Positions 1 through 58,543 of a stretch of 64,000 nucleotides of DNA are shown here, in pieces (the first letter of the stretch is position 1; each line of letters opens with the position of its first letter). Origin of the DNA: Amoebophrya sp. A120 (lineage: Eukaryota > Protista > Dinoflagellata). A program made the translations under genes and the position numbers. The DNA is taken from assembly GCA_905178155.1 (NCBI GenBank), contig CAJINV010000011.1, positions 2,035,894-2,099,893 of the forward strand. Direction: 5' to 3'. The notes beneath the pieces were generated by a model. It did not search any database. It was given only the letters and a program-made list of their open reading frames with translations, and was not told the origin of the DNA.

Positions 1-3000
1 GCGTGCCGGATTCCGCCGGTGTCGGAAGGCCCGGCGGAACGTGTATCAACTGGAAAAGTGTCTGCGTCTGGAAGAATGCAACCTGTGATGCTAACTTTGG
101 ACTCTAAAAAAATCTGTATTGCATGACCAGCAGGGGGAGTCTAGTTCGTGCTACGCAAAGAGGGCATTTGTCATGCGGAGTAGGCAGGACGAACCCCCCT
201 AAAAATCTGTGATGCTAGGTCGTGCATTACAGACATCCTGGGTGGTCATGCAAACTATGCATGACAAACCCGGCAACATTCCAGACCCAGACATTTTTGC
301 AGTTCATAACGTGGAGTCCCGCGCCACGCGGAGAAAATCGTCGCTGAAGCCCCCGTATCAAATGCAAAAATGTCTGGCTCTGGAACGAAGCAACTTGTCA
401 TGCTAAATCCGAATCATGTAAACATCTGTGTTGCATGATTCCCAAAAGCTTTCCACTTTTGACCTAATCGAGAGGAGGCAGTTTCTCATGCAGGATTATA
501 GGCATGATAGAAATCTCAGAGAATCTGTCATGCTATGTCCTACATACCAGACCTCATGGCTCATGCAAAACGTGCATGACAAGTCTAGGATTCTGCCAAA
601 CCCAGACATTTTTGCATTTGATACCCCGCCTATGGTCTCCATCTGCAGCAGCTGCTGCAGATCCCGCGGGTTACTCGACCGGAAGTCGCGGCTGCGTCCG
701 CTACCCGAACTCCCGCCGCCACTGCTGGTCAAGTTCAAAATGTCACCAAGGTATCTGTATTTAAGTGTGTTGATCAAGTGAGTTTGTGTTTGATATATAA
801 TTTTAAATTTTCGATACTTCTTCTTCTGCAAGAACTCATCGACACAAGCTGCAGGAGCATGATCGTAGTTATACTTCTTCAAGATGAAAATTGCAGCTAC
901 AAACATATCATGATCCAACTGAAACATCACTCAAAAGATCAGTATACAACTCCATCAGTATGCATCCGAAAGAGTAGACGTCCGTGCGCGCGTCCCACTG
1001 GACGCCAATCATCACTTCGGGACTGCGGTACTGCCGGGTGGAGATCACCTCGCTCTTTCGGTCCACGTCCTCAAAGATAGCCCCGCCGCAGTCGATAATC
1101 TTGATGTTGGCGTACCGCGGGCGGCGGTACTCTCCGTCCTCGAAGCACCCTTGCACCAATATCAACTGCAAAAGTGCCTCCGTCTGGAAGAGTGCCAGAT
1201 GACTTGTCATGCAGGTTTTCCGTGACCGATGAGGTCTGGTATGTAGGACATAGCATGACAGATTCTACTGTGAGAATTCTATCTATCACGCCTATCCTGC
1301 ATGAGAAAGAACTGCCTCGCCTCGATTAGGTCAAAAGTGGAAAGCTTTTGGTAATCAAAATCATGCAGTACAGATTTTTACATGATTCAGATTTAGCATA
1401 ACAAGTTGCTTTGTTCCAAAGCCAGACATTTTTGCATTTGATAACCAAGACCCCCTCGCGGTTCCGACGGCTCGGGGACACGCGGCGGCCCAGGAAACTG
1501 TACCGGTACTTCCGCTTCCACCGGGTGTACTCATCGCCCCCGACTTGCTGGGCCTCGTACTCTTTCCAGCACCGTTTCGGCGGGTCTGCAGTGCGGGTTG
1601 GTGAATACTCGAACAGAATATTCTCCGGCTTCAGGTCGGTGTGCACGCATCCCAGCTGATATTTAGATCGAGAATTCTTTACAGTTCAGTGCGGCAAATT
1701 TTATTTTACCGATTTTATTATTTTTGTTTATATCCAGAATGAAGGGTCATGCAAAATTGGAAATTACGCTCCGTTGCGGCCTCTACGTTGGAGCAGACGA
1801 ACTAGTGATTAAGTATGTTGTTGGTGCAGAAATTTAATATCTTCGAGGAAAAAAGCAAAACTGTACGTAACAATAACAAAGAAACGTACGTTGTGCATGA
1901 AGGTTAAGGCATCGAACCCATCCTTCCCAATCTTCTGAATATCCCGCAAGTACATCGGGCGGTACTGGTTTCCGGTCAAGTGATCGTACCTGATTTTTCG
2001 TATATATCATTTGGGTGACTCTTTCAGTTCCATATTACTCCCCCGCACGCAATAAACTGTCCATCGGTAAAATAAATGCTCGCCATGATCTAGTACCATC
2101 TTCAGCATCAGATCATGCACTTCTACAGCATTTGATCATTGCGTCCGACTGCCAACTTCATCAGCACGTCTTGGAACACACAACCAATGCGCGTCGAAAA
2201 ACAGAAAACAATATCAGTACAAGCTGACGGAAAGTTTCTCGAAGACCATTACAAAGTGCGACTCCTGGTTGGGACCGGCGGGGTGCATGAACTGCTCCAC
2301 TAGGTGGACGATTTTGTGCTTTCCCTCGCAATATGGATTGCAAATATGTATGGGTCTGGAAGAAGGGAACTTGTGATGCGCATTTCACAACACACAGAAA
2401 TCTCTCATGCATAGGCAGCAAAAGATACCCACTTTTTGTCGCCAAAGTGGGGGATTTGTCATGCGGATTAGGCATTGCAGAACCTTCTCGAAATCTGTGA
2501 GGCTAGGGCTTCCATGCCGCACCCTCTGTGTCATGCGAAAACAGCATGACATCTTCCAGACCCAGACATATTTGCACTTGATACGCAAACGCCGTCCAGG
2601 AACCGACTGGATTCGTCCTGTAACCGCTGCAGTATGCGGAATTCGTCTTCTGCGTCGGTCCGGTACTTCTCGCCCGACCGAATCACCTTGGCCGCGTAGG
2701 ACTTTTCTTCCTTGAGCCCCCGCGCCTCTCGCTCCTCCGGGGTCCCCTCGAAGCTCACCTCGATCACGCGGCCGAACGTGCCGTCGCCCAGATGCGCCCC
2801 GATCCGCCACTTGCTGTCCGTGCCCAAAAAGTTGAGGTTTGCAAACTGGAAATGCTCGATGTCGTCATTGCTGTTGCTGTGACTCGTATCCAAGAAAAAA
2901 TCTGTGTTAGTGTAAGTCTTTTGGGAAAACAGCATCACAAGTTTGTCTGCCATGACAGGACAAACTTCTTGCTATGCGTAGATACAAAGGGAACACACAT

Positions 3001-6000
3001 AGGAAGCGAGCCAGACATGCATGTCGAGCATGACAAGTGTAACTGTTTGGCATGTTCTGCATCACAGATTTACACTTACACAGTTTTCTTCTTGCATAAC
3101 TCGCCGCCCGATCGTGGTCTTCATGCTCCTCGTCGTCGTCGTCGCGCCCGCTGCGCTATCAAATGCAAAAATGTCTGGTTCTGGAAGGAAGCAGCTTGTA
3201 ATGCTACCTTTGGATTCTACACAAAATCTGTATTGCATGAACAGCAAGAGAGTCGCAACTTTTGCTACGTGGAGAGGGCATTTCTCATGCGGTATGAGCA
3301 TCAGAAAGCCATCGCAGAATCTCTGATGCTAGAGCATGCATCACAGACCTTATGGGTCATGCAAAATCTGCATGACAAACTCCAGCATTCTTCCAGACCC
3401 AGACATTTTTGCAATTCATATGCGCCTACTGCTCCGGCTGTACCTGCTCCTGCGGTGGTGCGACCGGGACCGGCGACTATCCTCCTCGCGTTCTTCGCGA
3501 TTGTAGTTGCGGCGTCCGCGTCGTGAGTCGGCGTTGCCCCGGGCTGCAGCACCAGCGCCGCCCCTCCGCTCTGACCTCCTCCGCCGGGAATCATCGGCAT
3601 GCTCTACGCGCCGCGCTCCCAAGGATCTCGCACGGCTCGCCCGACTTCTTGGTACGCTCCGTCGCCGCCGGTCGTGCTCGACAGAGAACCGCGCAGCAGT
3701 TATCCTATGTCAAAACGTCCCCACCCCATAGTCACAAATTTGGAGTCGCAATGTAGTCCTGTTTGAGGTACTTCAGCACCATCACAGATTTAGTATATCA
3801 TGCTGATTGGCGCATTACAAAATCCAAGACACGGCTGGAAAACACTTCTCATGGGGCTCCGCATGACAAACAGTTTGAGCATGCAGATTTGCATGACAAC
3901 TCTGGGGTGCGAACGTTTTTACACAGGATAGCAGCATCACGATCTTCAGCGTCCCGCTCCCGCTCCTGTTCCCGCCACTCCAAGGAGACCGGACGCATCT
4001 CCACGTCCTCGGCTTCGCCGTGCAAGAGTCCTGCAGCTCCGTGCTGGGGTCCTGCTTCTGCATCTTCACGGCCATGTTCTACTTCCTCCCGCCCCAGAAG
4101 CTGCTCGGGCTGCTCCTGCTGCTCGTGAAGAAGATCTTCATCCTCATCCTCGTCGTCATCATCATTTCTCGGATTGATCAAAAACTCGTCCTCCTCCTCG
4201 TCGCTAATGGGGTCGTCGTCGTCGTGCTCCTGGGGGTCATCTTCCGAAATGTTCTCCCCGTCGCCGGCCTGCTCGGGCGAAAATGATAAAGCGTTCTCGC
4301 CCTGCTCCTGCTCTCCGCGAACCGCCACGGGGCTGGCGCTCAAACTCAGCGACGTGTTTCCCCGGGCACGACGATCGTTTGGTGCGATTGCTTCCTCCCC
4401 GTCGAAGATGTTCTCGATGTTCTCGTCCAGCTCCGCGTCCTCGTCCTCCATTGGCGCTGCATCATCATCATTTTTATCCTCCTGCTGTTCGTTTATTGAC
4501 AAAGACCCTCGATGATCTACTCGGGAACCACGACCGCTTGCGCTTGCGGAAAACCGTTCTAGTTGTTGTCCTTGTGCTTCTCGCCGAGGAGTGCTTCTAT
4601 CGTGGTCCTCATTAATGGTGCCTCTATTTCTCCTGTACAAGTTTCTGGTGCTCCCGTCCGCGCTGCGATTGTTGGGGCTGATCTGGAGCGAGTTGATGTT
4701 GATGTTCGCTTGAAAATTATTTTGTGCGTCTTCATCGTTATTTTTATCCTGGTCTAAGTTGTTGTGCTGCAAAAGTCCTTGTGGTCCCCTTCCGTGCGAA
4801 GAACCCCGTCGACTGCTGTTGTTCCCGCGCGGACTTTGGTTATTGGCCGCGTCGTATGCATTGCAAATATGTTTGGGTCTGGAAGAATGCAACTTGTGAT
4901 GCTGCATTTGGAAACTACAAAAATCTGTATTGCATGAACAGCATAAGAGGCCCAGTTGTTGCCACTGCGAGAGGGCATATGTCATGCGGTCTAGGCATCA
5001 GGAAGCCCTCACAAAACCTGTGATGCTAGGGCATGCATCACAGACGTCAGGAGCCATGCAAAATGTGCATGACAGACCTTGCATCCTTCCAGACCCAGAC
5101 ATTTTTGCAATGCATACGTCGCGGGACCTCGCCCGCTCGGCCTCTTCGGCGGCCGCAGCTGGCGCTGGTGGTGCTGCACGGGGACTGAGGAAGAGCTCGC
5201 CACCCGCTGCGTCGCTCGCGCGCCGGCTCTTGTTCGATGGAGTGGTGGTTTGCTTCTGCTGCTGCTGCTCTACAACTTGTCCCACGGCGCCCGGGGCTGT
5301 TTTTTCAAAGTGAAAATATTGCTTACAAAACAAAAATGGAGATGCTTTTAATTTCATAAATGAATTCAAAATCCTCGATGATGTAGTTCCTGTTTTGTTT
5401 CATCAAAAAACATTTTCAAAATACCGGCCCCTCCTGTATCGTTCTCCCGCAGCACCGGCAGTGCCGACGATGCGAGTTCTTCCGCCATTTTTCCGGTTGC
5501 AGTGTCCTTGTCTTCCACACTGCTCTTCGCGCCTCCAACCACCGCGACGACGTTCGGCGAACTCTTTCCCGATTTCAGCATTTGCAGGGCCTCCCCCACT
5601 TGCTTCGCGACCTTCGACCCGTGCAGCTGGTCGTGCACTGCTGCTGCGGCACTACTTGAGGCGGACGCGGCAGCAATATTCTGTGTAGTGCCCACAGCTG
5701 AAGAACTTCTGTGCGTCCCCGACGAGTTCCCTTGCCGAGAAAGGTTGGGCAACTGAAAAGAGCGGTTTCGCTCAGACGGCGAGGAGACCGGCGCGGCTGC
5801 ACCGATGTTGTTTTCATTCGCAGTATTTCCACGTCCTTGTTGCGGACTTTTCTTAATGTTCTCGCCGCGGCCAACTGTCGTTTTTTTGTTCGTGCTGCCG
5901 AGGTTTTGGTTTTCCTCTTCGTCTTGGCTCATGATCTCATCCGCGCCCAGGAGGTCCTCGCTGGCTTCGAAGCTTTCACTGTCAGCACCGTCAGGGTCGT

Positions 6001-7680
6001 GCTGGTCAACACCCGATTCTTGTTCTGGGGAACGATCGACGCGACTGTGTGCGTCAGTACCAGCTGGACCTTCAACCGATTTGATTTTTGGATTGGAATC
6101 TTCTTTGAAAGAACAACCAATGCGACCAATTTTCTATTTCATCTGCCAAAAAGATCTAGGAGAGCAGGTGTGTCCAGCTGTAGAACTCCGCCGCTCTATA
6201 ATTCCATAAATAAACAAAAGTTAAGTTACTTAAATTTTTACCGTCCACCCCCATTTGACCATTGTTCCCCTCTCGACGCCCTTGCACCTGCTGTTCCTGT
6301 TGTCGATCCCCCGCACCATTCTTGCCCTTCCCTTTCCGCTGCGGCTGCGCAGGAGCTCGTTGGTGGTTATTCGGACCACGGCCGTCAGTCGTGTTCCTTC
6401 TTGCATGGTTCCCAAAATAATTGCTGTTCCTCGCTCGGTTAATATCATTGTTCCCGCCCGCCCGATTCCGATTGATGTTCTGGTTATAAGTATTCGTAGT
6501 GAAGAATCCCCGATTATGTTGGTCTTCGCGACGACCATGATGATCCTGATTCCGGTCATGATGATAACTACCCGCACCTCGTCCTGGCGACCTGTCGCGC
6601 CGGCGGGGGTTATGATCATTGCGACGATTGTTGTTAATCGGGTGGTAGTCTCCTCGCCTCCGACTCGTGCGCCCGCCGCGGGGGTTGTTATCATAGCCGG
6701 CGCGAGAATAGTCGTCACGATGCTGGTGCTGCTGATCACGTCCGCCACGGCGGTGATTATCCCCGGCGCCACGACGGCGATCATGATCCTCACGGCGCCT
6801 CACCGGGATGTTGTTATTGTTCCCCGGAGGTCCACGACCTCGCTGATTCTGATTGTACCCGCCCCGAGGGCCGCCCGGGAAATTGCTGAAACGTCTGTTG
6901 TTGTTCGTGTGGTTGTTGGTGCTAAACCGCCGGTGGTTCCCTCCGAAGTTCATCCCGCCGCGGGGTCCTCCTCGGTTCGACCCGGGCCTAGCTCCCGGTC
7001 GATCCAGGTTGTTCGTGCTTGGCCGAGGTAATAAAGCGGGGTTGGTGTTGTCATTGGCGTTGGTGCCGGTGTTGCTGTCGTTGTTGTTGTTTTCCCCGCA
7101 CTGTGGATGTTGACCTCCCCCGTCTACTGGGCGGACGTTGTTATTGGTGTTGCTGTTGCTATTGGTACTATTGTTGTTATCAGCAGTCGGGTCCTTGTTT
7201 ATAATTCCGTTGTCGTTTCTATCGACATTGTTCACCGGTACAACCGGGTTCTCTTTATTCTGCGTCTGCCGGCCGTCGCGGCCCACATTGTTCTGCCGAT
7301 CGTCGCGAGTGGTGTTGTTGTTGTTCCTGTGCCGGTCGTTGTTCTGCCGAGACCGCGGGCGGTCGTTGTTGCCGCGATCCGTGTTTCGATTGTTCTGGTG
7401 GTTCTGGTTGCCTCCCTTATGGTGGTTGCCTAAATTGATTGTGGTTTGTTTTACTAAGTAAAAGAACGCTGAAATAAAATCCAATGTCTTGTGCAGGTGT
7501 AGCAAGGAGAATAGTTCCGCGCGCGCATTTTATGCATCACAAGTTCGCAGTGTTGAAACAGTTTTTTGGTACGAGACGTAAGAAGAACAAATCAATACCT
7601 CCACCACGGTGGTCACGCCGGTTAGAATGCGGCCGGTCGCGTCCTCCGCCGCGATGGTACGCGCGATCTCCGTACCCCAT
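1..7680 (-). CDS. CLK/LAMMER-family (CMGC) protein kinase with long RG/N/RS-rich N-terminus; multi-exon, 3' end outside window
   Basis: Reconstructed exons give LGDGTFGRV, YAAKVIR, HFVMVFEKLSVSLY, HTDLKPENILF, IKIIDCGGA, STRQYRSPEV, DVYSFGCIL. Putative ATG at 7680 (MGYGDRAYHRGG). Linking the low-complexity N-terminal exons to the kinase domain is inferred from frame continuity across introns. Confidence 0.85.
44..308. mobile_element. Introner/MITE-like element, family A (TIR TATCAAATGCAAAAATGTCTGGGTCTGGAA-like)
   Basis: TIRs; TSD ACGTG. Confidence 0.9.
356..623. mobile_element. Introner family A
   Basis: TIRs; TSD CCCCG. Confidence 0.9.
1160..1443. mobile_element. Introner family A (inverted relative to 356-623)
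   Basis: TSD ACCAA; removal gives EGVLV|QGCFED. Confidence 0.9.
2332..2583. mobile_element. Introner family A
   Basis: TSD CGCAA. Confidence 0.9.
2887..3098. mobile_element. Introner, singleton TIR TATCCAAGAAAAAATCTGTGTTAGTGTAA
   Basis: TSD ACTCG. Confidence 0.85.
3157..3420. mobile_element. Introner family A
   Basis: TSD TGCGC. Confidence 0.9.
3701..3930. mobile_element. Introner family B (TIR TATCCTRWGTAAAAACGT..CCCACCCC)
   Basis: TSD GCAGT/GCAGC. Confidence 0.85.
4855..5116. mobile_element. Introner family A
   Basis: TSD CGTCG. Confidence 0.9.
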
Positions 7681-9707
7681 CGTGCTGTAGTTCTTCTTGT
7701 TGCCCGCTCTTGTTTACGAAGCGATACCGACCGACGCAAAAGAATTCTTGAATTATAGTTATTTTTCTTCACGCGACCCGCTTCCAGAAGTAGAAGTTGT
7801 TGCGAAAAAATATTGAAGCGTGAAGTTCTTGATCACGCCGTGGTCGTCGAGAGAAATCTTCCAAAAATTTTCTGCCGTGGTGGAAAGGTTCGCTATCCTC
7901 GGAGGTACCGCAATGTTTGTAGTCAAGGTCAAGGTTGAGGTCGAGATCCACTCCGTTGGTACAATTCTTCTCTTGGTCGTCCCCGATGGTGCTTATTTTG
8001 GAAGCTAAGACACAACTGAAACAACTTGAACTATTATCCTTTTTACGACACTAGAGAATATCAATATTTTTGAAGAAACGTAAATCCTTGCTAGTCTCGG
8101 TCTCCTTCGATCTTCGGTTACAGGACTTTGACTCCACTACTTTTATTGTTCTAAAAATTTTATTCGCCGAATTACTAAGCCAGCACCACACACTTCGTTG
8201 TAACGAGAAAAGAACCTTCACTTTTTGTTGATTGCAGCCGCGAGACAATTTCACTACTTGGATATTTTTGTTCTTTTTTGGTCTGCGCCGCGCCGGAATC
8301 ATTTATTTTCGCACGTACAAAAAATCTCCATCATTTTTCTAGAGATTCAGCACACACCCGATTTCCGTCATTAACAGCATCAAAAAATTCGGATTTAGTG
8401 CTGTGTACGGTAATTCTAGTTCATTTTCCATCTTTACCCTTGTGCTTCCACTTGAGAAGTACACGGTCTGATTTCGTTCTTCTGCCAGATCATCTGAAGC
8501 ATAAGCATCAGCCATTAGTAGGAGAAGAATACTCATAAGTAGATCCATGTAGAAGTTGCTTCACAACGTGTGTGCTTGTTGAGACATCAGTGGGAAATAA
8601 CTATCAGTGAAAGACCACCAAGCCTCTTGTCTGCTGCTTTTCCTCTTGTTAGGATAGAGTACTTACTTTCAGAGAAACCACTTTCCACTGCTGCAATTAT
8701 CAAGAGGAGTGCGGAAGTTGTGACCACTGGCAAACACAATGTAAGACTAGCACAAGATTAGGCATATTTTTACCATGGGATAGCAGGATAGGTAAAGCCA
8801 CAGGTGCTTACAAGTAGAACCTCTCTCAAGCAATAAGAAACCAACGCACAGGTTATTTACTGAGCACTTCTGACCGGTCGCAGTTTTGAGTGAAAAGCGG
8901 TGCGGCGACACCATATCATCAAGAAGAAACATTTCGTTACCCGGATAGAAACGTGTTGAATACCCTGTAGGAACACGGATTGACTTCCTGCGACAGCCAA
9001 GTACTACTCCACCACCTAGGAGCTGCTTTCATCGTTTTCACGGATCTTTCATAGTGTGTTTCAGACTGTCTGTCGACGCGCTACTGGTTTCTAATACGAA
9101 AAAAAGCGAGAGTCAGCACAGTCGCGCAGCTTGTTCTTTCCTTGCTATGCAACGGGTTCATTTTGTGTCACCGCCCGGAAATTCATTTTACCGGTACCTA
9201 TAATGCTTGTTACCTACTATGCACAACCCGCAGTTCCAGCATCTAGATCATGTACGTCTAGCATGATATACAAAACTTCACACATCTTGAAAAAATCATA
9301 GGCCATCAGACAGCAAAAACCTATGGCATTGTGATCCAGCGCTCGCTACAAGCTAAGACAGGTAGACGATTTTATTTTCTAAATTTATGGATACACGACG
9401 AGGAGGCATGACACCGCCCTCGTAAAGAAAAATCAACCTGACACAGAAACTGTGGCATGGGCGTGATGAGCCACGTGTTCGCTTCGTTAGGAATAAAAAT
9501 TTATCGATCGGTTCATTTTTTACTGGGCCAACACTTATATATCATTTAACCGAAATCTTACACCTATTTGTTCGTTGAAAAAGTGTGAAAAAATGAGTGC
9601 AATAAGCTGCCAATCTTTTATCCTACATAGTGTCGTGCAGTTTCATTTCATATTTAAATGTCATGCTCTACCCATAGCCACCTCGGTGGACAAGCTCTAC
9701 TCATGGT

Positions 9708-12455
9708 CTAAACGAACAGTCCCTCGACGTCGGCGAGGCTGCCCTTTCGACTGCAAAAGTCCGCTACGGTCGACAGCGACTCGACCCGCTGCATAATTGG
9801 ACACGTTTTGTTCTTTTTTCCGAAACAGCTCGTCTCGCTATCCATCCCCTCGTCCAACAACTGTGGGGGCTTCTTGCGAAAGTACCCAGTACCTCCTCTT
9901 CCCGTTGATGTGCTACTGGGTTCGGTCGAGATTATCGAGGTAGACAGGCTGGCGGAGGACGTCGACGAGGACACGGATTTTTCCGAAAAGCAAGCCGGTG
10001 AGAGCGCGACTTCTTCGGATGTTATGTCGAAAATTTCCCCCGTGCTTTCGAGCTGCCGCAGCCGCTGTTGCGTCTCTTCTACCACGTCGTACCGGACGTG
10101 GGAGAGGAGCACGGAACCCGGCGAGGTCGCCATGTCGCGCGTGATTGGCAGCCAACCACCTACGTTGACGGCCGGAGAGAATTTGATGACCGCGGGCAGG
10201 GATGAGATCTAGGAGAAGTCCGTTTTATATATATTTTTTTACTATTGATTGTCCTGTGTCAAAATCATCTCAATGTCGCCGCGAAATGGGCATGACGTCA
10301 AATAAGAACTCATCAAAAGAAAAAGTTTGGAAGCTCAATATGTTCCCCGAGCGAGCCTGGTGGAAACTACTTACATCACAACCTACTGACTCCAACTCCT
10401 CTTTTCAGCTCTATATACCTGTCCATCGTGATCCAAATCTTTGGCCAAGGAGCCTTCCTTCTGTGTGTTCCGCAGGTCAAATTCCACACACCTGCGCTTC
10501 AAAACGTACCGAAAGTTCCGCTCGAGCATCTGTCGAAACAGCTTCCCCTCGTTGACGAGCACGTCTGCGAGCACCTCGTGGCAGCCCGTTCCCGTGGCCT
10601 GCTGCACGAGCCACGGCCCCGCGCCGCCCTGCAGTCGCGCGCCGACCTCGATCAGACAGGGTCCGGTCTCGGTGAGCATCACCTCCCCGTGGCTTATCCT
10701 GTGCAAAAGAATCGCACTCGTGTGTTAGTAATTGCGCCTATGCATTACAAATCTACATGCTATAGGCAAATCAGCATGACAAATTCCATTTGTGAAGATG
10801 CTGAGCTAATTTGTATTGCAATACTACGAGTACGACACTTTTGCAAAGCATATGGCTGGCGCCGAAGTGAAAGCCGAGCGCGTCCAGGCAGGCGTGCATG
10901 TAGGCGATCAGGAGATTGGCGGGGGACTCGCACTATGCATTGCAAAAGTATCGTATTCGTACAAATGCGATACAAATTTCTGCAGCATAAGTAATGCAGA
11001 TTTAGCTGTAATGCATGATTGCAACACGAGTACGATTCTTTTACACAGGATACGCACGCATCGATGACCTCGACGGACTCGTAGGTGATGGAGTTGTGTG
11101 CGGGGTCAAAGTGCTTCTTGTAGCGCAGCAGGCCCGTGACCACGTGGCGGCCCTTGAAGGACACACTGTTGACGACAAACTCCGTGCCCCGCAAAAACTC
11201 CTGGGCGAGCAGCTTCTCGTTGGTTTCGCCGTTGCAGTTTTGTTTGCTCTATCCAGCGCAAATATGTCTGGCTCTGGAAGACTGCAAGGCTTCTCATGCA
11301 GGTTTCGCATGACCCGGAAGGGATAGAGTGCGAGCCTAGCATCACAAGTTTTGAGAATCCTCCTCGGTGCCCATTCTGCACGAGAAATGTTGCTGTCTTG
11401 TAAGTGTAACCGATAAACTGGGCACCTTTGTTGGTCACACAATACAGATTTTTGTGTCGATCCAGCCCAACATGACAAACTCAAATTCTTGCAGACCCAG
11501 AGCACATATTTGCAATGCATATGTTCAGCTCTTGGTAGAACGCGTGGTCAATGTCTGCAGCGCTATGGATGTGTCAGGATTGAAATCTTCGACAAAGTTG
11601 AAATATTAACTTGTCATGCATAAAATGAATGAAAGTCGTAACCCAGTTTCCAAGTGACGCATGATAAATTTGGGTAGAGCCGAAATCCAGTTTGTCATGC
11701 TGTTTGGGTAAGGCAGAAGCCTTTTGTCATGCTACTTCAGCAGCTCAGTTTCTACCCCTTAACAGGCTTACAATCTGCCTCCCTCGCTTACTCAGCAAGA
11801 CAAGCACCTTGTGGCTTGCATTTTATGCATCACAAACTATTTCAACTTTGACGATTTCAATCCTGACACTCCCATACGTGCTGTGACACCAGTACACGCC
11901 GTCCGTGCCCCCGGAACAGGCTGGCTTCACGATGATGGGGAAGGAAATGTCGGCTGCTTCCATCCAGTACCGCACCTCTTCGGCCGTCGCGCAGTAGCTC
12001 TGCCGGATGGCGCGGAGGTTGCGGTCGCGCAGCCGGGCCTGCTGGTCGAACTTGTGTCGCCGCCAGGAGCTCGTTCCTGCGTCATTGGAAAACTTGGGGT
12101 CGCCTAAAACCGCTTGCAGTTGCTCCGCGACGACGACCCCCGGCTCGCTGCCGGCGACGACCGCGTGGATGGATGATGGTGCACAAGCTGACAGCGTGTT
12201 TGAAAGAAAATTTCGGATCTTCCGCGCGGTGTCTTCCACGGTGCTGAACTGCACCACCGCAGCGAAGTCCGCCGGCTCGAGCTGCCGCAACCAGAAGTCG
12301 GCGAGCTGCAAACTGCTCTGCACCGCGATCAGCGTCGCACCGGCCTCTTTCAGGGAGGCAACCAAACTGCGCCCGGTCGAATACGGGTCTACGACCACAA
12401 TAACGCAACCACAATAGCGCGGATCGTGGGAAGGGGCTGCAAGATTTTTTGACAT
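9708..12455 (-). CDS. ATP-grasp ligase (L-amino-acid ligase/NikS-DdaF-like), multi-exon
   Basis: Spliced motifs VVVDPYSTG, VVAGSEPGV, FPIIVKPACSGGTDGVYWC, LAQEFLRGTEFVVNSVS, GASHGEVMLTETGPCLIEVGARLQGG. Confidence 0.85.
10695..10852. mobile_element. Introner family C (TIR TATCCTGTGCAAAAGWATCGYACTCG)
   Basis: TSD TGGCT. Confidence 0.88.
10934..11052. mobile_element. Introner family C (shortest, 119 bp)
   Basis: TSD CGCAC. Confidence 0.88.
11250..11521. mobile_element. Introner family A
   Basis: TSD TGCTC/TGTTC. Confidence 0.85.
11564..11876. mobile_element. Introner family D (TIR TATGGRWGTGTCAGGATYGAAATC)
   Basis: Degenerate TSD AGCGC/CGTGC. Confidence 0.85.
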
Positions 12456-13191
12456 CTTGTTTTCTTTTTTGATGCGCAATAGCTGGCCCTGCACGTCGCG
12501 GGCGACCTCCAACCAAAGGCTGGAAGATGATTTACCAGGAAGGCTGTAGGAGATAAGTATGAGATTGATAGGAATAAAAAATCCCCACTGCAAAAAAAAA
12601 CCTGCACCCGCACTCAGTTACAGAAACGACCCTATTTACACGTATACGCGCTTTCACTCAAATACGCCGCCGGCGGAGAGAAGAAAATTTGAAAGGGGTT
12701 AGGTTCTTGCGCACCAGCACTCTGCCTCGGTTCGGCTGTACTAAGTATACGCCGGAAGAAGAAAAACTCTCAGTCTGAACAACAAAAGTAGTTGCATCAA
12801 GACTACTTGAACACTCGAGCTGCAGACCGAAAGCCCCTCAAACACCAAGTAGGCTGGCCGGCGAGGAGTAAATACATCAATATGAAATCGGCTTATTGCT
12901 CTAGTACTACTCTGTGGTTTTTACAGGCAGTGCCGTCTTCACCCAAAGTTGCAGTCCCCGTCAGCGTTCATCGTTCTCGCCTGCGCTTCAAGATGATATT
13001 GACAACTCTGTATATTGACAGCGGAAGCAAAAGTAGCATACCAGCGGATCCGGATGATACAGATTAAAATAAAAGGACCATCAAAGTAGTGGCCATCACA
13101 GATGGACGAGCCAATTATCCCTACCCTAACCTACGAATCACAACTCAACGGCGCAGGAGTTCTTAGTTCCGCTGGAAAGGCAAACGCCGCG

Positions 13192-16100
13192 TCAGAGATC
13201 GTCCAGGTAGGGCTTGGAAATATTGTGGATATGTTCCAAAAATTCTGCGTCGGATTTGGTTTCGGCGGCTCCATATTTTTTCGTGATCAGGTAGTCGGTC
13301 ATCTGGACGAGCTTCCCAACGCTCTCCGCCGTTATCTCCAACAGCTCGTCGGTGAGAATGTTGTAGAGCAGGTAGCGGAACTGCACTTCCCGCTCTTCCG
13401 CGCGCCAAAAGAACTCCTCGCGGTTCCCCCCCGTGAGAAACCGGTCCACAAACGTCTCCGTCTTCTTGCGCAGCTCCGGCTCGGTATGACTGTGCACAAC
13501 TTCCCCTTCCCCTCACTTGTCCTGCATGAACAGCAATACAAACGCCGGCACACTTGGAGCGATCGCATGACAAGTTCATGCGCTGATTGTAGCTACTGGT
13601 ACTGTTTGGCGGCTTGCAGAATTTGTAATGCAAACATTGCCAACAGGCAGCAACTCGATTTGGGATTTTGCATGACAAATGAGGGAAACTACAAGGGGGA
13701 CGGGGAGTTGCGTACTCTCATAATCGGTGCTCAAAATTTTCGCCAACAACTTGCTGTCGAAAACACAATTGCTGACAATCATGGATGAAGTAGATGCTCC
13801 AGATCCAGATCCGCTCTTTCCTGCCGTCGCACTGTTATCGCACATTTCCGGGAATAGATGGGCCGCAGACCTCTGAATCAAGTTTGCTTGCTCGCTTAAA
13901 GTTGTAGAACTACACACTTGATCTTCTTCTTGTTGTTGTACTCCTGAACCTCTAGCGGCAGGAATAGCGGCCGGAGAAGTATCTCGTCTCCCCGCCCGTC
14001 GTGTTTGTTGATGCCCGTCACGGGGGCACGCTCGGTCTCGTACACTTTTGCAGCCTTGGTGAAGAAGTAGAAGATTTTTCTTGCGCAAGCCTTCAACCCC
14101 AGTAGTTTTCGTGGTACCACTACCGCCGCCGGCTTGTCGCCTCCCGCCGTCCGATATGTTAGTGAACATAGCTCCCCCTCGTTCTCATTTCTCATGCAAA
14201 ATCCACAATTCCAGTTGCTCCCCTGCGTCACTATTATGCATGACAAATGTCGAAAGCCCAAACAGTACTACAGCAGGTACATAAATTTGTCATGCACAGG
14301 CTCCAGGGTCGCTGGCGTTTGTCTTGCTGCTCATGCAATACAAATGAGGGGGAGGGGGAGTTGTGCACTGGCATATCCAAACTCTTTTCGTCTTCCTCTT
14401 CCGCACCGCCCACCCCGCTTCCTACCCCGTAAAGAAGCGCGTGCTCATCCTCATCTTCGTCGTCGTTTTCTTCGTCGTTGTCAACCTGCGAGTCGCCTTT
14501 TTTAGCACGACCGTGTAGTAGTAGTTTTTTCCCGACAGAAGCATCCTCATCCTCCCTGATGTCGTCCTCCTCCTCGCGCTTTACCCTCTTTCTTTTCGGA
14601 GAACCTGACGACGGTGTCGGTGGCCGGGAACAAAATTCCTCGTCCGGAACCGACGAAACCGGGGTTGCAGGCCGAGAATTCGAACAAGAAGACGGTGTGT
14701 CTGGGATGACGATAACTTCTTCCGTCTTAGCTTTATCGTAGTTTATTTTCTCGTCCTCGCGCCGGCCCTGACAACTCCTCGGCCTCTTCTTTTCCCGCCC
14801 TGGCGGGGCGACGGGCGCGGGCCTGCTACAACTTGATGACGCAGGTAAAGAAGACGAGGAAGCTGCATCAGCTGTGCCAGCTTGTTGATTCCCTACGGGC
14901 CGCGGTGGTCGTACAACGACTGGCACTGCCGCAGCGGCAGCAACTTCCAAACACTCCGTCAGAGCGGCTTCCAAACTGTCGTTGTGTTTCGCGAGAATCC
15001 GCTCTACCACTGCCGGCCCGAGTTGCGGACACATCTCTACTAGATGCGCGACATTTTGATTTGTCGCAGCGCTGGTTCTTGTGTCGCGGTGCGCCGCGGG
15101 AGCTTGTTGAAACGAGAAGTCTACCTCCGGCCGCTTCGGCGAGTCGTCTTCATCATTTCCACAGGGATTATTTGAGGGTGTGCTGGAAAACTCGGAGATC
15201 TCTTCATCGTGAATGAACTTTGCGCGCAACGCCTGAACAGTTGGAAAGCAAATCAATCCAGTTTGAAGTCGTGGTATATCATCCTACTAGTCCCGAATCG
15301 CCATAGCCTGTCATTGCGTTGTTGCCACACCAGGAGATCTGCAGGAGAAGAACTTTTTATCACAAAGGGAATGGAGAAAAAAACAGGGGAGAAAAAAAAC
15401 CTTTTCAAACATTTACGAACGAACCCTGGGAATGAAATCGCACTTACCATGTTCGCGGAAATCCCCAGAGTTTGGCCATTTACCAGAAGGGGAGATGAGC
15501 GCGACCAGTATCTGTATCTGTAGAAGCGGGAGTTTGGCCATTCACCAGAAGGGGAGGGTCGGGAGTTCTACCATTCACCAGAAAGGGAAGGGCGGGAGTT
15601 TGGCCATTCACCAGAGGGGGAAGGCCGGGAGTTTGGCCATTCACCAGAAGGGGAAGGCCGGGAGTTTGACCATTCACCAGAAGGGAAAGGTCGGGAGTTT
15701 GACCAGTCACCAGAAGGGGAAGGTCGGGAGTTTGACCAGTCACCAGAAGGGGAAGGCCGGGGGCTTGACCATTCACCAGAAGGGGAAGGGCGGGAGTTTG
15801 GCCATTCACCAGAAGGGGAAGGGCGGGAGTTTGACCATTCACCAGAAGGGGAAGGGCGGGAGTTTGACCATTCACCGCGCAAGCAGAGTGGAAAGGCCAG
15901 GAGCTGGACCATTCACCGCGCAAAAAGGCTGGAAAGGTCAGGGGCTTGACCATTCACCACGCAAACAGAGTGGAAAGGTCGGGAGTTTGGCCATTCACCA
16001 GAAGGGAAAGGGCGGGGGTTTGGCCATTCACCGCGCAAACAGAGAGGAAGCGCCGGGATTTGCGAAAGCGCAAAGGCCAAAGCGCAAAGGCGAAAGCGCA

Positions 16101-19100
16101 AAGGCGAAAGCGCAAAGGCGAAAGCGCAAAGGCGGAAGCGCAAAGGCGAAAGCGCAAAGGCGGAGGCGCGGACTCCGTTTCCCTTTTTTCGTTTTCTGTT
16201 CTCTGCAAAACCTCACAACTCGCCCCGCTCAATGCTAGGAGCTATATCATCCTGCTACTACTACTAGGCCCGAATTGCCAAAGCCTGCCATTGCGTTGCC
16301 ACACGAGCAGATCTGCATGCTCATCCTAGAGCAATCTTCTTATCACAAATGGAGAAAAAAACAGGAGAGAAAATAAATGTCATTCAACATTTACGTCGAA
16401 CGAACCCTGTGCAAGAAATTAAGCTTACCATGTTCGCGGAAATCTTCAGCCTTGCGCACAAACTCTCGGGTCGTGGTCCCTCGTCCCCCCCGGAAATCCC
16501 CACCAAACTCGATGAAAACAGATCCCGCAACTCCGCTCGGGCTTTTTTCTGCTCTTCCTCGATCACGGCCAGCTCGTTCAAATAGGCGTACAGCGCCAGC
16601 TATGCATTGCAAATATGTCCTCTATGTCTGGAAACTTGTGATGCAAGGAAGGGAATTATAGTGAGCTCACAGTAAAAATGCGCTCCCAAGCACGACAAGT
16701 CTTTTTCATGCTTCTGAGTTGCGTGTTCCGCATCACAAACTGCGTTTTTGCACCATGACAGGGAGGAAGAGCTCTTCGCGGCCACGCAATACAAAGGTCA
16801 GAGAGAGTAATGCCAGACTAGCATGACAAATCTCGCGATCTCCCAGACCCAGACATTTTTGCATTTGATACCAGCTGGATCTCGTGCACCACTTCCAACT
16901 TCTGCACGCACTTGAATTCAAACACGCACTTTACTTATGGAGAGAAAAAAGTTGGTCACAGTCACTAAGTTGCAGGTTTTGCATTACAAATTTTTTGAGC
17001 ATCACAACTTCTCCTTGTATTGCAGAAACACTAAGGAAATCCCTGAAAAAGTGTGGCTGTGATGCATTTTTACGCATGACAGACAATTTTGTATTGCAAA
17101 AATGCCCATGAGTGATCGTGACGAACTTTTTTCTTTTGATATTACTTCTTTCGACTTCACAAACAAGTCCAGATACCCCTCCAGCCGCCGGTCCTTCAGC
17201 TATCAAAATGAAAAATCACCCCTCCCCATATTAAAACGGACATTTGTGTAGCAGGATTTGCGATCACAAGTCAGTTTGTCATGCTAGAAGGCAAATAAAG
17301 ATGCGAACTGTAGAGCTGTCTGGTATGGGAAAGCCTTGCAGCTTCAGCATGACAGAAGGCAACTGAAAGTGGAATACAGCATGACAAATCGCCTGCAATT
17401 GAGTCCGCCACTGCGTCTCTTGGCCTTCTACCAATACAAGTCGATTTGTGTATGCAAATCCAGCATCACAACTGTTCTTTTCTATACGAACAGGGGGAAT
17501 TTTTCTTCACAATATCAGCTCTCTCCTTCCTTCGCGGACCAGCTTTTTCTCAAACACCGCGGAGTGTTTATCATTCATAAAAACGTCCCCATCTTGCAAA
17601 TCTTCATGCATAAATTGTTTCTCATGCGGAGCCCCATGCGAAGAAGTTTCTAGTGGCGTTGTGAGATTTGTCATGCTCAAATCAGCGCGGCATGCTAGGT
17701 CTCTGATGCTGCTGCACTAGCTAAACGCGACTACACTACGAGGCCAAACTTGTCATGCGCAACAGCCTAAGCTGGTCGATTTGTCTAGCAGATTTCCCAA
17801 CTTGATGACTCTGGAGTGGGGAGGTCTTCACGCAAGATAGTGTTCGGTAATGGCGATCTTCGCTGCTCTGTCCTCGTCCCTCTTGCCCTTCTCGTCGTGT
17901 GGTTGGTGGGCCGGCGAGGTACAGGTACCCGCCCCTTCCCGCATGTAATATGACCCGCTCAGGTGTTACAATCTCAAATCGGTTACCATAGAATATAGAA
18001 ATCCACCAAATCTGTGATGCAAGAGCTGCAGTATCTAGCTAACTCTCATGGGATTGCGCATGACACGTTCTGGAGTCCCAAACCGCACTAGAATGATCTG
18101 GCGAAATTTGTATTGCAGAAAGGGGAATGCTGTCCGAGTCTGTCATGCTCATCATGCAACACAAAATCCAGATGCAATTGTAACGTTTTAGATTGTAACG
18201 TTTGAGCAGGTCATATGTAAGCATCGAAGCTTTTGGTTTCCCCGAACACGGCCTGTTCCTCCTTGAAGAATTCTCGATTATGCATTGCAGAAGTATAAAA
18301 AGCATCTAGTATAAACAGCATTACAAAGTTGCTCAGCATTAGAAACATAATTTGTATTGCGCAATTACTTTGAGAAGTAGATTTGTAATGCATGACTGCG
18401 ATGGTTACCACGACCACGAGCACAATACTTTTGCAGTGCATATCGATTCAGGGAAAACAACCGCTCCGAGCACCGCTCCAGCTGCTGCTGCGGCAGCCAG
18501 GAAAAGTCGGTGATTTGGCTCAGCTTGTGCACAAAACCGGAGGTCACGGCCACGTATTTGGTCGCAATCTGCAGCAACTCCTTGGACGCAAGCGTCGCTT
18601 TGACCGGGAGCTCCTGCACGTCGCGCCTCCTTGCACTCGCATTTTCTCCGGTAAGAAGTACGACCGGACTGTCCACGTCGGGGGAGCCCGAGCCGCCGCT
18701 AGTACAGTAACTTCCGTCCCCCGCCTTGTCTTCCCCAACGCTGCCCGCGGACAGGGAGCTGCCCCGAGGCTGGTCGCGGGAGTTGTAATGGTGTTCCTGT
18801 TGTTCCTGCGAAGTTGTAGCAGTGGTTCTTACGTTTTTTCCGCCACCAACGTCCTCTTTCATCTGCTGCTTTCGCAGCAGCAATTCTTTCCCGACGTTCC
18901 CGAGCAGCATTCCCTTGCTTGCCGTCTTCTTGTTGTCCTTTTTCTTTTTCTTCCCGAAACCAGCAGCCTTGTTTACGTTTTCTCTTTCCTCCAGCTTCCG
19001 CCTCCTGGTTTCGGCCCGGTCTTGCTGTATAACCCGCTCAGGTGTTACAATCTCAAACGTTACAATAGAGTCTGGAATGCGCAACATCTGGCCTACTGCC

Positions 19101-29240: not shown

Positions 29241-31009
29241 TGCCACCGCGTGCGGCAGGCCGAAGCCACGTGGCTCTCGGAACTCCAGCGTCTAGTACCT
29301 CTGCGACATCTGTTTATTGCCTCGTCTGGAACTACGTTGCAGTTTAATGGATTTCAATTTCTTTTCTCCCTGTTTTTTCAGATCAAATCTCGTGCTATTT
29401 TTGCGGTTCTTTCCGAATAAACCGAATATGATGTAGTTGCGTGGTGCTCGGGCAAGTTTTTTAATTACACACAATAAATTATTTACGTTGAGTTGCGCAC
29501 CGTGTCGAGGAAAGTAGAGAAAGTCCAGTAAAAAGTACCGGACTATGTGTTGTGTGCCGCAAGATTTTTCCCAAGAGGGATCTTGGAGGTGTCACCTTCT
29601 AGCCGATACTGTGGGAAGTCCACCTTGTTACACCTGTGAGTGTAACAACAAAACCGCATCAGGAGCAATTCGGCAGGTTGTTCTTTGGCAAGATCACGTG
29701 AAAAAGCGGAGGTCCGCGCATATTGCAACTACAGAGAAGCACATCCATGAGAGCTGCGGACAACGAGAACGACAACGACTTCCAATTTTCCTGCAAAAAT
29801 AAAACCGATCCCGATTTTAAAAAACAGTAGCGTAGTAACTACCTCCCGCAACCGACGGGAAGCGGTAGTAGAAACCTTCAACCGACACGCTTCAAACCAC
29901 AAGCTCGTAGACAAGATTCACACAAAGATGCGTACACAAATTACTTCCACGATGGGTTCTGCTGCGGGAACAATGAATCAATAGCCCAGGACTGGAATTG
30001 TATTCGGTTCTTCAACAGTAATCACCATTCAACCGTGCTATACTGCGCTGGAAAGCTTTATTATCTTTACGCACAGATCACATTAAGTCGTCATGTCGTC
30101 TTGTCGCTGGCAATGGGGATCGCGGCCTGAAACCAGGGGCGCTCTGAAGATTGTCTTCAAGTTCAAACTTGCTCGTCAGTAGCGCTACATTACAGTCGTC
30201 AAAAGCGAAACCAAATGAGTTTGAAACATTCATACCCGACTCGAAGATATAATCCTATTCGTACTTTACAAAATATAGCCGCCGGGGCGGGGGTAGTGAG
30301 GTCGTGGGCGTTTTTTTGCCGACCGCAGCCTTGGCCGCGGCTTTGCTTTTTATGGGCTCGCCATACCACCGTGAGTAACGTTATGCCGCACGGTATGGCG
30401 GCCACTTGGGAAACGTCGCAAATTTTGGCACATTTCCAAAATTCCTTTCCGAAAGCCAGCCCCGATGCTATGGGGCCGATCCGGGTGCCACGGGGGGCGC
30501 CCAAAAAGCGAAGAAAAACCGGGCCCATAGCATGCGGATTGGCTTTGCGCGTCTGGCGCGCTTTTTATTTTTCGCGTTTTTATTTTTCACGCCGGCGCTT
30601 TTTGCAAAGCTTCCCAGGCTCTAAAACCGGCGAAAAGGCGGCCGCTTTCGCGGCCACCCAAAATACTCCGAAATCGCGGCCGTGCCAGGCTGTTTCGCTG
30701 TTCTGATTTTGGGCGCGTTTTTTGCGCGCCCCTTTTTGGGCGCCCCAAATCGCCAGAAACGAAGGCGGCGGGCGCCTCAGAAGGGCGCCCCTTTTACCGG
30801 CTCCCCTGCGTCGTTTTATCAAGTGCGAATCGATAGTTTTCGACCTGGCTTGTTTGCCGCAAACGCCCCGGCCGCTTGATAAGTGAAAACTTTTTATGCT
30901 CAAAAACACTTCCGACCGCTTGAAAACTGCCGGTCGTTTTTCAGGGTATATGGCAAAAAAACTCCCTGGTTAGAACCGTTCGGTGACCTCACTACATATA
31001 AACGGTGTC

Positions 31010-56100: not shown

Positions 56101-58543
56101 GTTAAAGTAGCAAGACAAAAGCAATCTTCTGTGCCCAAACAGCGTGACAAATTGGATTCCGGTGCTCGGAAGATTTGCCATGCACTGCTTGGAAATTGGG
56201 CTTCCAACTGGTATCAATTTTAAGCATTACAAGTTATTTCAACTTTGTCGATTTCAATCCTGACACATCCATAACGAGGGTCGTTCTCGTTGTAGTACCG
56301 AGGTGAAACATTACAATTGAGTAACTTACAACCACAGCATGCGCAAAAGATCACGACCTGGAGGGAGTTTCATACATCCGGGGGGAGGTTTATTAATATA
56401 GCCTTCTCCCCGCACAGAACTGCCGCATCTCCCCGCGCGATGCTCCGACGGGATAACGAGATTTACTCCCTCAAGCTGGCGGTGTGCAGCAGTTCTGAGT
56501 ACAATAAAAGTACTATTTTCACATGACAGAGCGAATCGCGCACGCATCACATCTCCCAGGTAGTTCACAGTGTATTTTCCCTGCTGTAAGCAGCACATTT
56601 CATTTCGAGTTTGAGGAAGTAACAGTCAGTACTGCAATCATTCTTGTTCACTTCGATAGCAGAGGAAGAAATTGAATCTGACCCGTCCTGCAAAGATCCC
56701 CGAAAGATGTTCTTCCCCTGCGGATCCTCATTTGCTGCTGCCAAGCCACCGCTCCGCCTTTCCTCTCCGTCGCTGGACTCCAGTAAAGTTTTCATCTTCG
56801 CGCGCGAAGATCGCGCAGATGTTGATGACGCAGACTGATTTACGTCGCTGTTGCTGCCTCTTTGATGTTCTTCGGCGGAGAATATCAACTGCAAAAATGT
56901 CTGGGTCTGGAAGATTGCAACTTGTCATACTGTTTTTGGATTCCAAAAAAATTTGTATTGCATGACCAGCCCGAGGAATACATTTTGTGCTACACGACCA
57001 GGCCACTTCTCATGCGGAAGGTGCATCAGGAAGCCCTCTAAAAGTCTGCGATGCTAGGTCATGCATTACAGGCATCATGGGTCATGAGAAATATGCATGA
57101 CAAGTCTTGCATTCTTCCAGACCCAGACATTTTTGCATTTGATAGAGAACACGGGCGTGCGCGTTTTGCGCACGAACCTGCCGTATCAAATGTAAAAAGG
57201 TCTGGGTCTGGAAGAATGCAACTTGTCATGCTGTTTTTGGACTTTAAAGAAATTTGTATTGCATGACCAGCAAGAGGGGTGTAGTTTGTGGCACACGGAC
57301 AGGGCATTTCTCATGCGGAGAGTGCATCCGGAAGGGTTCTAAAAATCTGTAATGCTAGGGCATACATCACAGACTATCATGGGTCATGAGAAGTATGCAT
57401 GACAAATCTCGCATTCTTCCAGACCCAGACAGATTTGCATTCCATATCCCGCTCCGCCGTCCCGAGCGCGACTCCTGTTGTACTTCTTCCTCCGTCCTCC
57501 CGTCGCTGGACGCGGGACGCGCTCGTCCTGGCGGAGCAAGTAGAAATGGGTGTGCACTCTCTTTTCGGTCTACCGGCGAAGAAGCTCCCACGCGCCCGTC
57601 ATTTTTACCACCGGAGGACTGGTTGTGGTACAGCGGCTTTGAAGATGTTGTTGACCGCGGGGGTGAAGTAGGCGAGCAAGTTTTTGCAACTTTATGATCT
57701 CTGCTGCTGTCCAGCGGCGCGGTGTTTTTAGAGCCGGAGGAAGTAGTCGCGCCTTTGATATTTCTACCACAGTAAGAACCCGGCCGGGTGGTAGAAGAAG
57801 TCGAACTTGAACTGGTAGACGGCAGCAAACGCCAAGCAGGCGGCAGCTCCCCCTGCGGTCCCGGACGCGTGCCCCGCTTGTTGCTGGCGACGAAAGAGGG
57901 CAATAAATGATCGCCAGCGGCGGGGTTCGCAGCCTTCGTCCGGAAAAAACTTCTGCAGGGCCGTGGGAAGATTCCTTCATGTTTTTGCTGAATCGGAGAA
58001 GTTGAACCCATGCAACGACCCTGAAGAAGCCGCGCCCGCGGACATCACAACCTACTACAGCGATCTTCATATCTCGTCGTCACAACTTGAACCTATGCGA
58101 GCAAAAGAGGTACTCAAATATCAAACTCTACCTTCCTCGTCTCTCCCCTCCGCCACTTCACGATGAAGGTAGCCGTCCCGCTCCGGTGAAGCCATACTCT
58201 GCTCGCTTGGGGGATCGAATGCAGTCCGCTCATCCTCCTGTAGTTCCTGCCCACTGCACTCCGAGTTGTGTCCCTCCTCGCGCACGCGGTGCCGCAAGGC
58301 GTGGGTCAGTTCCTTCAGCTTTCCCACCTGCAGCTCCAAGCACTGGATGGTGCGAACGTGCGCGTTAATGGTGTCGTCCTTCTGGCGCAACCGCTTCTCC
58401 CAATGGGAGGGGGAGTAGACAGGCGCAACGCCTGGGACGAGCGGGAGGTCGTCTTTCCACGGGAAGGCATGACCGTCGCCGGGACTGGCCGTGCGGCCTC
58501 TGCTGGTGCCGGCGGCGTCAGACGGGTCGGTGGCGCTTTCCAT
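53181..58543 (-). CDS. Coiled-coil and GAF-domain-like protein, multi-exon
   Basis: N-terminal heptad-like WEKRLRQKDDTINAHVRTIQCLELQVGKLKE; C-terminal GAF signature SVLAVPVF...VIGCVELLGKPGDFTAADQLAAELLA. Confidence 0.6.
53245..53420. mobile_element. Introner family G
   Basis: TSD AGTCG. Confidence 0.9.
53739..54137. mobile_element. Introner family A, enlarged and degenerate
   Basis: TSD CCCGC. Confidence 0.82.
54206..54491. mobile_element. Introner family A
   Basis: TSD GCCCG/GCCGG. Confidence 0.85.
54531..54843. mobile_element. Introner family F
   Basis: TSD GCCAC/GCCGC. Confidence 0.85.
55367..55903. mobile_element. Outer introner (TIR TATCSYRCGAAAAA..TGTTTCACTGTAA) containing a nested element
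   Basis: TSD CCACC. Confidence 0.85.
55623..55884. mobile_element. Introner family A nested within the outer element's TIR
   Basis: TSD ACACT. Confidence 0.9.
55966..56273. mobile_element. Introner family D
   Basis: TSD ACGAG. Confidence 0.9.
56883..57144. mobile_element. Introner family A
   Basis: TSD GAGAA. Confidence 0.9.
57184..57446. mobile_element. Introner family A
   Basis: TSD TGCCG/TCCCG. Confidence 0.88.

Follow-up and report, generated by a model that had tools for sequence, protein, structure and literature searches.

We have found that the introner elements of Amoebophrya sp. A120 are absent from spliced transcripts whatever their orientation relative to the host gene, a result supported by RNA contigs and annotated proteins, and that the borders of the removed segment follow the direction of the transcript: in transcript sense, the intron reads N-TAT...ATA-NNNN, with one cut located 1 nt before TAT and the other located 4 nt after ATA (the -1/+4 rule). 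The elements themselves are the known introners of this genome, and the feature, which is real, belongs to a system already described; removal very probably takes place on RNA, with a cut that is polar with respect to the transcript. Our analysis concerns a stretch of 64,000 nt (contig CAJINV010000011.1, positions 2,035,894 to 2,099,893), which we refer to as the window and which contains exons that are 100% identical to two annotated Amoebophrya sp. A120 proteins, as well as a sample of loci from a second assembly.

The element set

The elements of the window were collected with a finder that searches for TAT...ATA inverted ends next to a 5-bp direct repeat; it returned 50 matches in the window and none in each of five shuffles, it gave identical results on reversed loci and is thus strand-symmetric, while the TAT...ATA end pattern had no match in viral contigs. 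The final window set of 73 elements consists of the 50 finder matches, minus the sub-hit 44110, plus 24 degenerate copies that were added by hand; a perfect 5-bp target duplication is present at 51 of the 73. Comparison of the window with itself revealed dozens of related repeats of 120-460 nt, in both directions, and the traits of a MITE-like DNA transposon are present, i.e. terminal inverted repeats, a target duplication of fixed length and insertion in both orientations.

The sample of the second assembly comprises at least 142 loci (L001-L142), with the 80 rows listed carrying one common assembly prefix. The loci listed hold 256 elements, 205 of them with a perfect 5-bp target duplication; 16 were set aside as nested or near the end of a locus, leaving 240. 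The host strand in this sample is a codon-model call with no RNA behind it, obtained for 172 of the 240 elements, with 68 (including four with odd ends) left uncalled; the same procedure was right for 60 of 61 elements in the window and self-consistent at 41 of 41 multi-element loci. Among the loci listed, the second assembly shares the element families of the window, its copies being up to 96% identical to those in the window, and 42 of the 172 strand-called elements are without a family assignment.

An internal motif, TGT(C/G/A)ATGC, occurs in 198 copies within the 20 kb of elements versus 5 copies in the 44 kb outside them; it is found in 67 of the 73 elements, equally on both strands and pointing inwards near the ends, and may be regarded, from its distribution, as a candidate binding site of one protein common to all families. 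The stretch 61377-62462 (1086 nt) belongs to the 11564 family and has an unrelated interior of about 700 nt; its ORFs are all at most 124 aa long. The element 55367-55903 holds a second, complete nested element (55623-55884), and the whole 542 nt are skipped by RNA-type contigs in three of four runs. At 48384-48654, the direct repeat is located 3 nt off the left end of the element instead of being adjacent to it, and the frame is still open after removal of the element and 5 nt.

Two further stretches of the window have an unusual structure: an intron-like stretch at 15284-16444, where a purine-rich minisatellite lies between two copies of a segment of about 180 nt (15284-15463 and 16261-16444), and an intergenic, element-free stretch at 29300-31200 with a low-complexity GC/poly-A-T pattern, for which no Rfam family passed the gathering threshold. 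The Rfam search gave no match anywhere in the window.

Host genes and annotated proteins

All genes of the window are located on a single strand. The first of them (1..7680, minus strand, running past the window start) encodes a 1566-aa protein with a C-terminal protein kinase domain, 100% identical to the annotated protein P0038; within the window, this gene contains eight elements and six canonical introns. The removal of each element together with 5 nt predicts specific exon junctions, and P0038 carries them at 8 of 8 elements. The predicted junction peptides are likewise present in P0001 at 4 of 4 elements, and in P0041 at 9 of 15 tested, these nine being all that fall inside the span of the protein.

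Two long minus-strand frames are opened by the same removal: one of 1259 codons, which is open through 13 elements (including 21584-22042), and one of 1609 codons, which is open once eight elements are removed. For the gene that contains 21584-22042, and also for a helicase-like gene, no annotated protein of its own was among those returned. On the shorter side, open stretches have a median of 28.5 codons with the elements retained versus 124.5 codons after their removal, and one frame-restored gene aligns to its homologues across all four junctions.

Opposite-orientation relatives

The initial annotation had described three pairs of reverse-complement relatives within minus-strand genes, and all three pairs were recovered, with all six elements located in minus-strand reading frames and flanked by perfect 5-bp target duplications. 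The elements 356-623 and 1160-1443 are opposite-orientation relatives within the same minus-strand kinase gene: they are 83.3% identical when one is reverse-complemented versus 60.3% in forward comparison, and the difference persists in their interiors without the inverted ends (82.6% reverse vs 52.2% forward; BLAST E 3e-77, minus strand). The 23-nt cores of the two motifs quoted for this pair occur once each, at positions 442 and 1329, the second motif lying within 1321-1351.

The second pair consists of 2332-2583, an element of the kinase gene that is placed by sequence comparison and by its P0038 junction, and 45441-45692, which lies in opposite orientation in the 1609-codon frame, beyond P0041 (this protein starts at 44919), and is placed by the frame; they are 84.2% identical as reverse complements, and their interiors 83.2% reverse versus 50.0% forward. 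The third pair, 21584-22042 in the 1259-codon frame and 44402-44680, whose junction is present in P0041, gives two minus-strand matches (97.7% over 88 nt and 79.4% over 228 nt), and the matching pieces flank a secondary insertion of about 170 nt in 21584-22042. A direct repeat, about 17 nt long, flanks this insertion (21654-21843), which has no Rfam match. The elements 10695 and 10934 were also considered as an orientation pair and were dropped, their interiors being direction-blind, with 44.9% identity both ways.

The claim that removing either of the two kinase elements restores the frame calls for two corrections. The frame is restored by the removal of both together and not by the removal of either alone, since there is an in-frame stop in each and both must go; moreover, the removed unit is not the bare element, but the element plus one 5-nt duplication, i.e. 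273 nt for 356 and 289 nt for 1160. Both elements belong to family A, the first in orientation + and the second opposite to it. The element 356-623 has its duplication at 351-355 and 624-628, and because this duplication is perfect, the cut is not placeable there directly; under the -1/+4 rule, 352-624 would be removed. In the same way, for 1160-1443, with its duplication at 1155-1159 and 1444-1448, the rule predicts the removal of 1156-1444.

Absence of the elements from spliced transcripts

The RNA evidence consists of assembled contigs from one study with two samples, where the RNA type of the contigs is a guess; GT-AG introns are indeed lacking in them. Between positions 50900 and 58100, such contigs skip all 13 top-level elements, each together with 5 nt. 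In the region 1-15200, the gaps between the displayed pieces of RNA contigs are equal to the predicted exon sums (577/577, 180/180 and 0/0 nt). For one gene, the length of the joined model, 1841 nt, is the length of the X4 contig, and its minus frame extends over 528 codons versus at most 180 codons on the plus strand. The elements 356 and 1160 have no RNA joint among the 15 joints listed of 15 + 522, their support coming from P0038 and from the frame.

Both orientations are represented among the skipped elements of one and the same family. In family A, the skipped elements 4855, 53739, 54206, 56883 and 57184 are in orientation +, while 11250 and 52081 are in orientation -; further skipped pairs of opposite orientation are 11564 and 55966, as well as 54531 and 51089.

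When the orientation of the elements is tabulated against the host strand, as the initial annotation had proposed, no overall depletion is seen: family A splits 19:10 in the window (p=0.14), and among the loci listed from the second assembly, with model-called strands, the split is 43:53 (p=0.36). In one subfamily, a ratio of 9:2 in the window stands against 8:19 among the loci listed from the second assembly (p=0.052), and we claim no orientation bias of a subfamily, because the lean of the window is reversed there. Nor does each orientation supply canonical sites of its own: a GT/GC-AG placement that gives the same mRNA exists in 1 of the 73 window elements and in 11 of the 172 strand-called elements among the loci listed from the second assembly. 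The proposal of orientation-independent removal is therefore supported by the RNA contigs, the annotated proteins and the even split, with neither a systematic retention of one orientation nor a supply of canonical signals by each orientation having been found.

Retained forms are seen at two elements. At 54531-54843, the retained form has a depth of 12.8 versus 19-38 for the spliced form (X3), and at 51089-51316, it has a depth of 9.8 versus 46-49 (X6), contig depth being a poor measure in both cases.

Position of the cut

Where the two copies of the duplication are no longer identical, they reveal the copy from which each base of the mRNA derives; we denote by k the number of duplication bases that are kept from the upstream copy. 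The value k=4 is the sole one that is compatible with all 12 informative elements. The RNA joints allow k=4 only at 56296, k of 4-5 at 51089, 51407 and 57184, and k of at least 2 at 54206 and 54531; the ends of contig pieces, as read from the piece table, give k of 3-4 at 11564, at most 4 at 13485, at least 2 at 14155 and at least 1 at 3701; and the annotated proteins give k of at least 3 at 11250 and 4-5 at 39114.

The decisive intron is located at 56292..56659 on the minus strand, around an old element (56296-56658) with a fully decayed duplication, where an exact RNA skip occurs in three of four runs and fits k=4 only; in transcript sense, it consists of 1 nt, TAT...GTA and 4 nt. The reading of 56292-56659 as a plus-strand GT..AG intron was rejected, since that contig also contains a GT-AG intron on the minus strand, together with the minus frame of 528 codons.

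The same cut in transcript sense is observed for both orientations of one family. The element 51089-51316 has a decayed duplication and is cut after base 4 or 5, in a gene that a motif marks as putatively lumazine-synthase-like; 54531-54843, which belongs to this family as well and points the other way, is cut after base 2 or later, with a retaining contig also present; here, both observations come from RNA. In family A, the element 57184-57446 (orientation +) is cut after base 4 or 5 according to RNA, while the element 11250-11521 (orientation -) is skipped in an RNA contig and the annotated protein requires that at least three bases of the upstream copy be kept. If the cut site belonged to the element, k would switch to 1 or less in the opposite orientation, which is excluded by 51089 versus 54531 and by 57184 versus 11250. 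In another gene, 13485-13722 and 14155-14375 are opposite-orientation relatives, the RNA contig skipping the first and losing its fit at the duplication of the second.

In Table S4 of Farhat et al., all nine top types of non-canonical borders in A120 start with N-T (PMC7789003), in agreement with the -1/+4 rule; the table may, however, owe its form in part to aligner placement.

Sequence constraint at the element ends

The dinucleotide TA at the transcript-5' end of the element, i.e. at intron positions +2 and +3, is present in 245 of 245 elements (73 from the window and 172 among the loci listed from the second assembly), whereas the mirror bases at the transcript-3' end deviate in 12 of these 245 (0 vs 12, p=5e-4); the loci listed from the second assembly alone give 0 vs 8 (p=0.008). 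On the same loci, ATG accounts for seven of the 12 deviating ends, a possibly tolerated U-G wobble, and without those the comparison becomes 0 vs 5 (p=0.06). Deviations at element position +4 are C or A in six of seven cases, with the second assembly represented by the loci listed.

The canonical donors that were recovered are all GTA (9 of 9: five GTAT, three GTAC and one GTAA); given this and the invariant TA, each element end is equivalent to a local donor minus its G. The remaining positions of a canonical intron are free: intron position +1 in the 73 window elements is C in 22, G in 19, A in 18 and T in 14, the last dinucleotide is free as well, so that GT/GC...AG borders are absent as a rule, and the first base of the next exon (base 5 of the duplication) is unbiased.

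No invariant A exists near the 3' end: the A at position -7 is changed in 3 of the 245 elements (second assembly as loci listed), two of which are spliced in RNA, and 54531 has a G at this position. There is no bias that favours a branch-type motif at -7, near the 3' end, or a G at +5 (35 vs 46, p=0.27, second assembly as loci listed), and a CTRAY-like motif inside the elements is found 49 times in sense versus 33 times in antisense.

Mechanism of removal

The initial annotation had proposed that recognition depends on symmetric features of the element or occurs on double-stranded DNA. The signals of the element are symmetric indeed; the processing is polar with respect to the transcript, and both the fixed -1/+4 cut and the TA, whose invariance is confined to the transcript-5' end, speak against recognition on double-stranded DNA and for a step on RNA.

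Excision from DNA before transcription, either programmed or driven by a transposase, as the earlier interpretation allowed, is in our view very improbable. The elements are symmetric and have the anatomy of a DNA transposon; transcript polarity could be imitated by a staggered symmetric cut read off the template strand, provided that neither repair nor replication ever followed; and the joint table of the DNA runs is filled by cross-copy joints, which would mask any excision joints. Excision at this level is nevertheless disfavoured, because DNA-like contigs cross the element-exon borders at a depth of 43-49, equal to that of unique sequence (contigs drop rare variants), the sequence constraint follows transcription in being asymmetric relative to the transcript, and the RNA-type runs contain retained as well as skipped forms; furthermore, one contig that retains 54531 appears, judging from record lengths, to enter a spliced canonical junction. 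A hairpin combined with a direct repeat is also the usual recipe for template-switch artefacts, and all of the RNA evidence consists of contigs derived from cDNA, so that the skips might have been produced by a reverse transcriptase switching template across the hairpin and the short direct repeats, with no removal in the cell. We consider this scarcely credible: it fails because exact skips occur where no direct repeat remains (56296 and 51089, at the same offsets as elsewhere), while retention would break the frames, including that of the gene that aligns to homologues across four junctions, and a TA constraint restricted to the 5' end implies that selection acts in vivo.

With removal placed on RNA, we lean on balance towards an altered U2-type spliceosome as the most likely agent. 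The element would insert as DNA in either direction, presumably through a transposase. In the pre-mRNA, its 5' end, N|UAU, would act as the local canonical donor GUAU with a relaxed +1 position, N|UA being what is recognised; since both ends of the element begin with TAT when read inwards, N|UAU is always found at the 5' end in the pre-mRNA. The 3' site would be measured by its distance from the second arm, with no need of AG, and the arms would pair, or a protein would bind the shared end and subterminal motifs, probably before the 3' site is set. The two cuts together take exactly the length of one duplication, and the mRNA is scarless. Beyond +2U and +3A, no hallmark of the spliceosome was found, which counts against this reading, and U1 snRNA is, according to the text of PMC7789003, not detected in the genus Amoebophrya.

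The latter point speaks for the main alternative, possible though rather doubtful, namely a spliceosome-independent RNA system of the kind put forward for Euglena, where the terminal hairpin would be recognised, the cuts would be made 1 nt from its base on the 5' side and 4 nt from it on the 3' side, and the exons would be ligated. A geometry of fixed offsets with neither a +1 G nor AG agrees with such a system; the ends are paired in the predicted folds of all five elements that were folded, and elements with decayed duplications keep their paired ends and are still removed; in Euglena itself, with N3-CDG...CHG-N5-6, the length of the spacer matters (PMC12501133). Against it, arm positions 4, 5 and 7 are paired in only 43, 41 and 29 of the 73 elements, and G-U pairs on the transcribed strand are in no excess over A-C pairs (74 vs 81 and 149 vs 168), so that selection for an RNA hairpin as such is unsupported; the duplex energy does not differ either between sense and antisense (p=0.50). 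In addition, with the second assembly taken as loci listed, the 3' end accommodates changes outside the wobble, while the change at the 5' end that a wobble would permit never occurs; the invariant bases are also those of the local GTA donor.

Regardless of whether the catalyst is a rewired spliceosome without U1 or a new hairpin-guided enzyme, it seems fairly probable that these transcripts obey a second general code, N|UA...AUA-N4|, which lacks the +1 G, the AG and a fixed branch motif, and by which any such insert would be removed scarlessly, whatever its position in an exon and whichever way it points, rendering the transposons nearly harmless and explaining the intron invasion.

Implications

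More than 60% of Amoebophrya introns are without GT-AG, and published work has left their border unplaced; the -1/+4 cut offers one rule for the re-annotation of tens of thousands of introns and, together with the invariant +2U and +3A, makes the mechanism of removal directly testable. If the rule holds genome-wide, it accounts for the low cost at which transposons insert anywhere in exons and in both directions, and forms a parallel to the separately evolved code of Euglena. The independence of orientation and the fixed -1/+4 rule appear to be unreported for Amoebophrya: no statement on the orientation of the elements or on a fixed cut was found in the text of PMC7789003, PMC12130899, PMC9860276, PMC11282704, PMC11453091, PMC12787238 or PMC12621601, nor in a wider literature search, although the figures of PMC7789003, the datasets of PMC12130899, bioRxiv supplements and subscription papers may hold one. 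One sentence of Farhat et al. on the position of the direct repeat may partly anticipate k=4 (PMC7789003).

Comparison with known systems

The introner elements of A120 have been described by Farhat et al. in 2021 with an inverted-repeat motif of "TAT + seven bases + AAA", 5-bp direct repeats (legend of Fig. S19), lengths near 240 nt, a hairpin and non-canonical borders (PMC7789003), and the elements of the window match this description in end motif, direct repeat, length, hairpin and borders. Their terminal inverted repeats consist of TAT, seven looser bases and at least three A, a repeat of 3-5 nt is located at the border, and repeated families with non-canonical borders are absent from spliced RNA. 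The repeats of strain A25 begin with TTA instead. The passages on "orientation" in the text of Farhat et al. concern genes and not elements (PMC7789003).

Introner-like elements that work in both orientations have been reported for Polarella glacialis and Aureococcus (10.1101/2020.10.14.339549). As described there, GT/GC/GA and AG sites are provided by the element or by the duplication and an orientation bias exists, whereas in A120, neither position +1 nor the 3' dinucleotide is constrained, and no overall orientation bias is seen.

The nonconventional introns of Euglena resemble those of A120 in having paired terminal triplets, fixed and unequal cut distances, no GT-AG and a proposed origin from MITEs (PMC12501133). 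They differ in the triplets (CDG/CHG vs TAT/ATA), in the spacers (3 and 5-6 nt vs 1 and 4 nt) and in the purine at the start of the exon, so that the Euglena-type signature, N3-CDG...CHG-N5-6 followed by a purine, does not describe the ends found here, N-TAT...ATA-N4; moreover, excised circles are reported for Euglena (PMC12501133). In Fritillaria borealis, finally, introns are likewise derived from transposons and are processed by a changed U2 spliceosome (10.1101/2025.08.15.670264; PMC11282704); their borders, as given in PMC11282704, are mostly AG-AC and AG-AT, in contrast to the conserved +2U and +3A and the free 3' end of the A120 elements.
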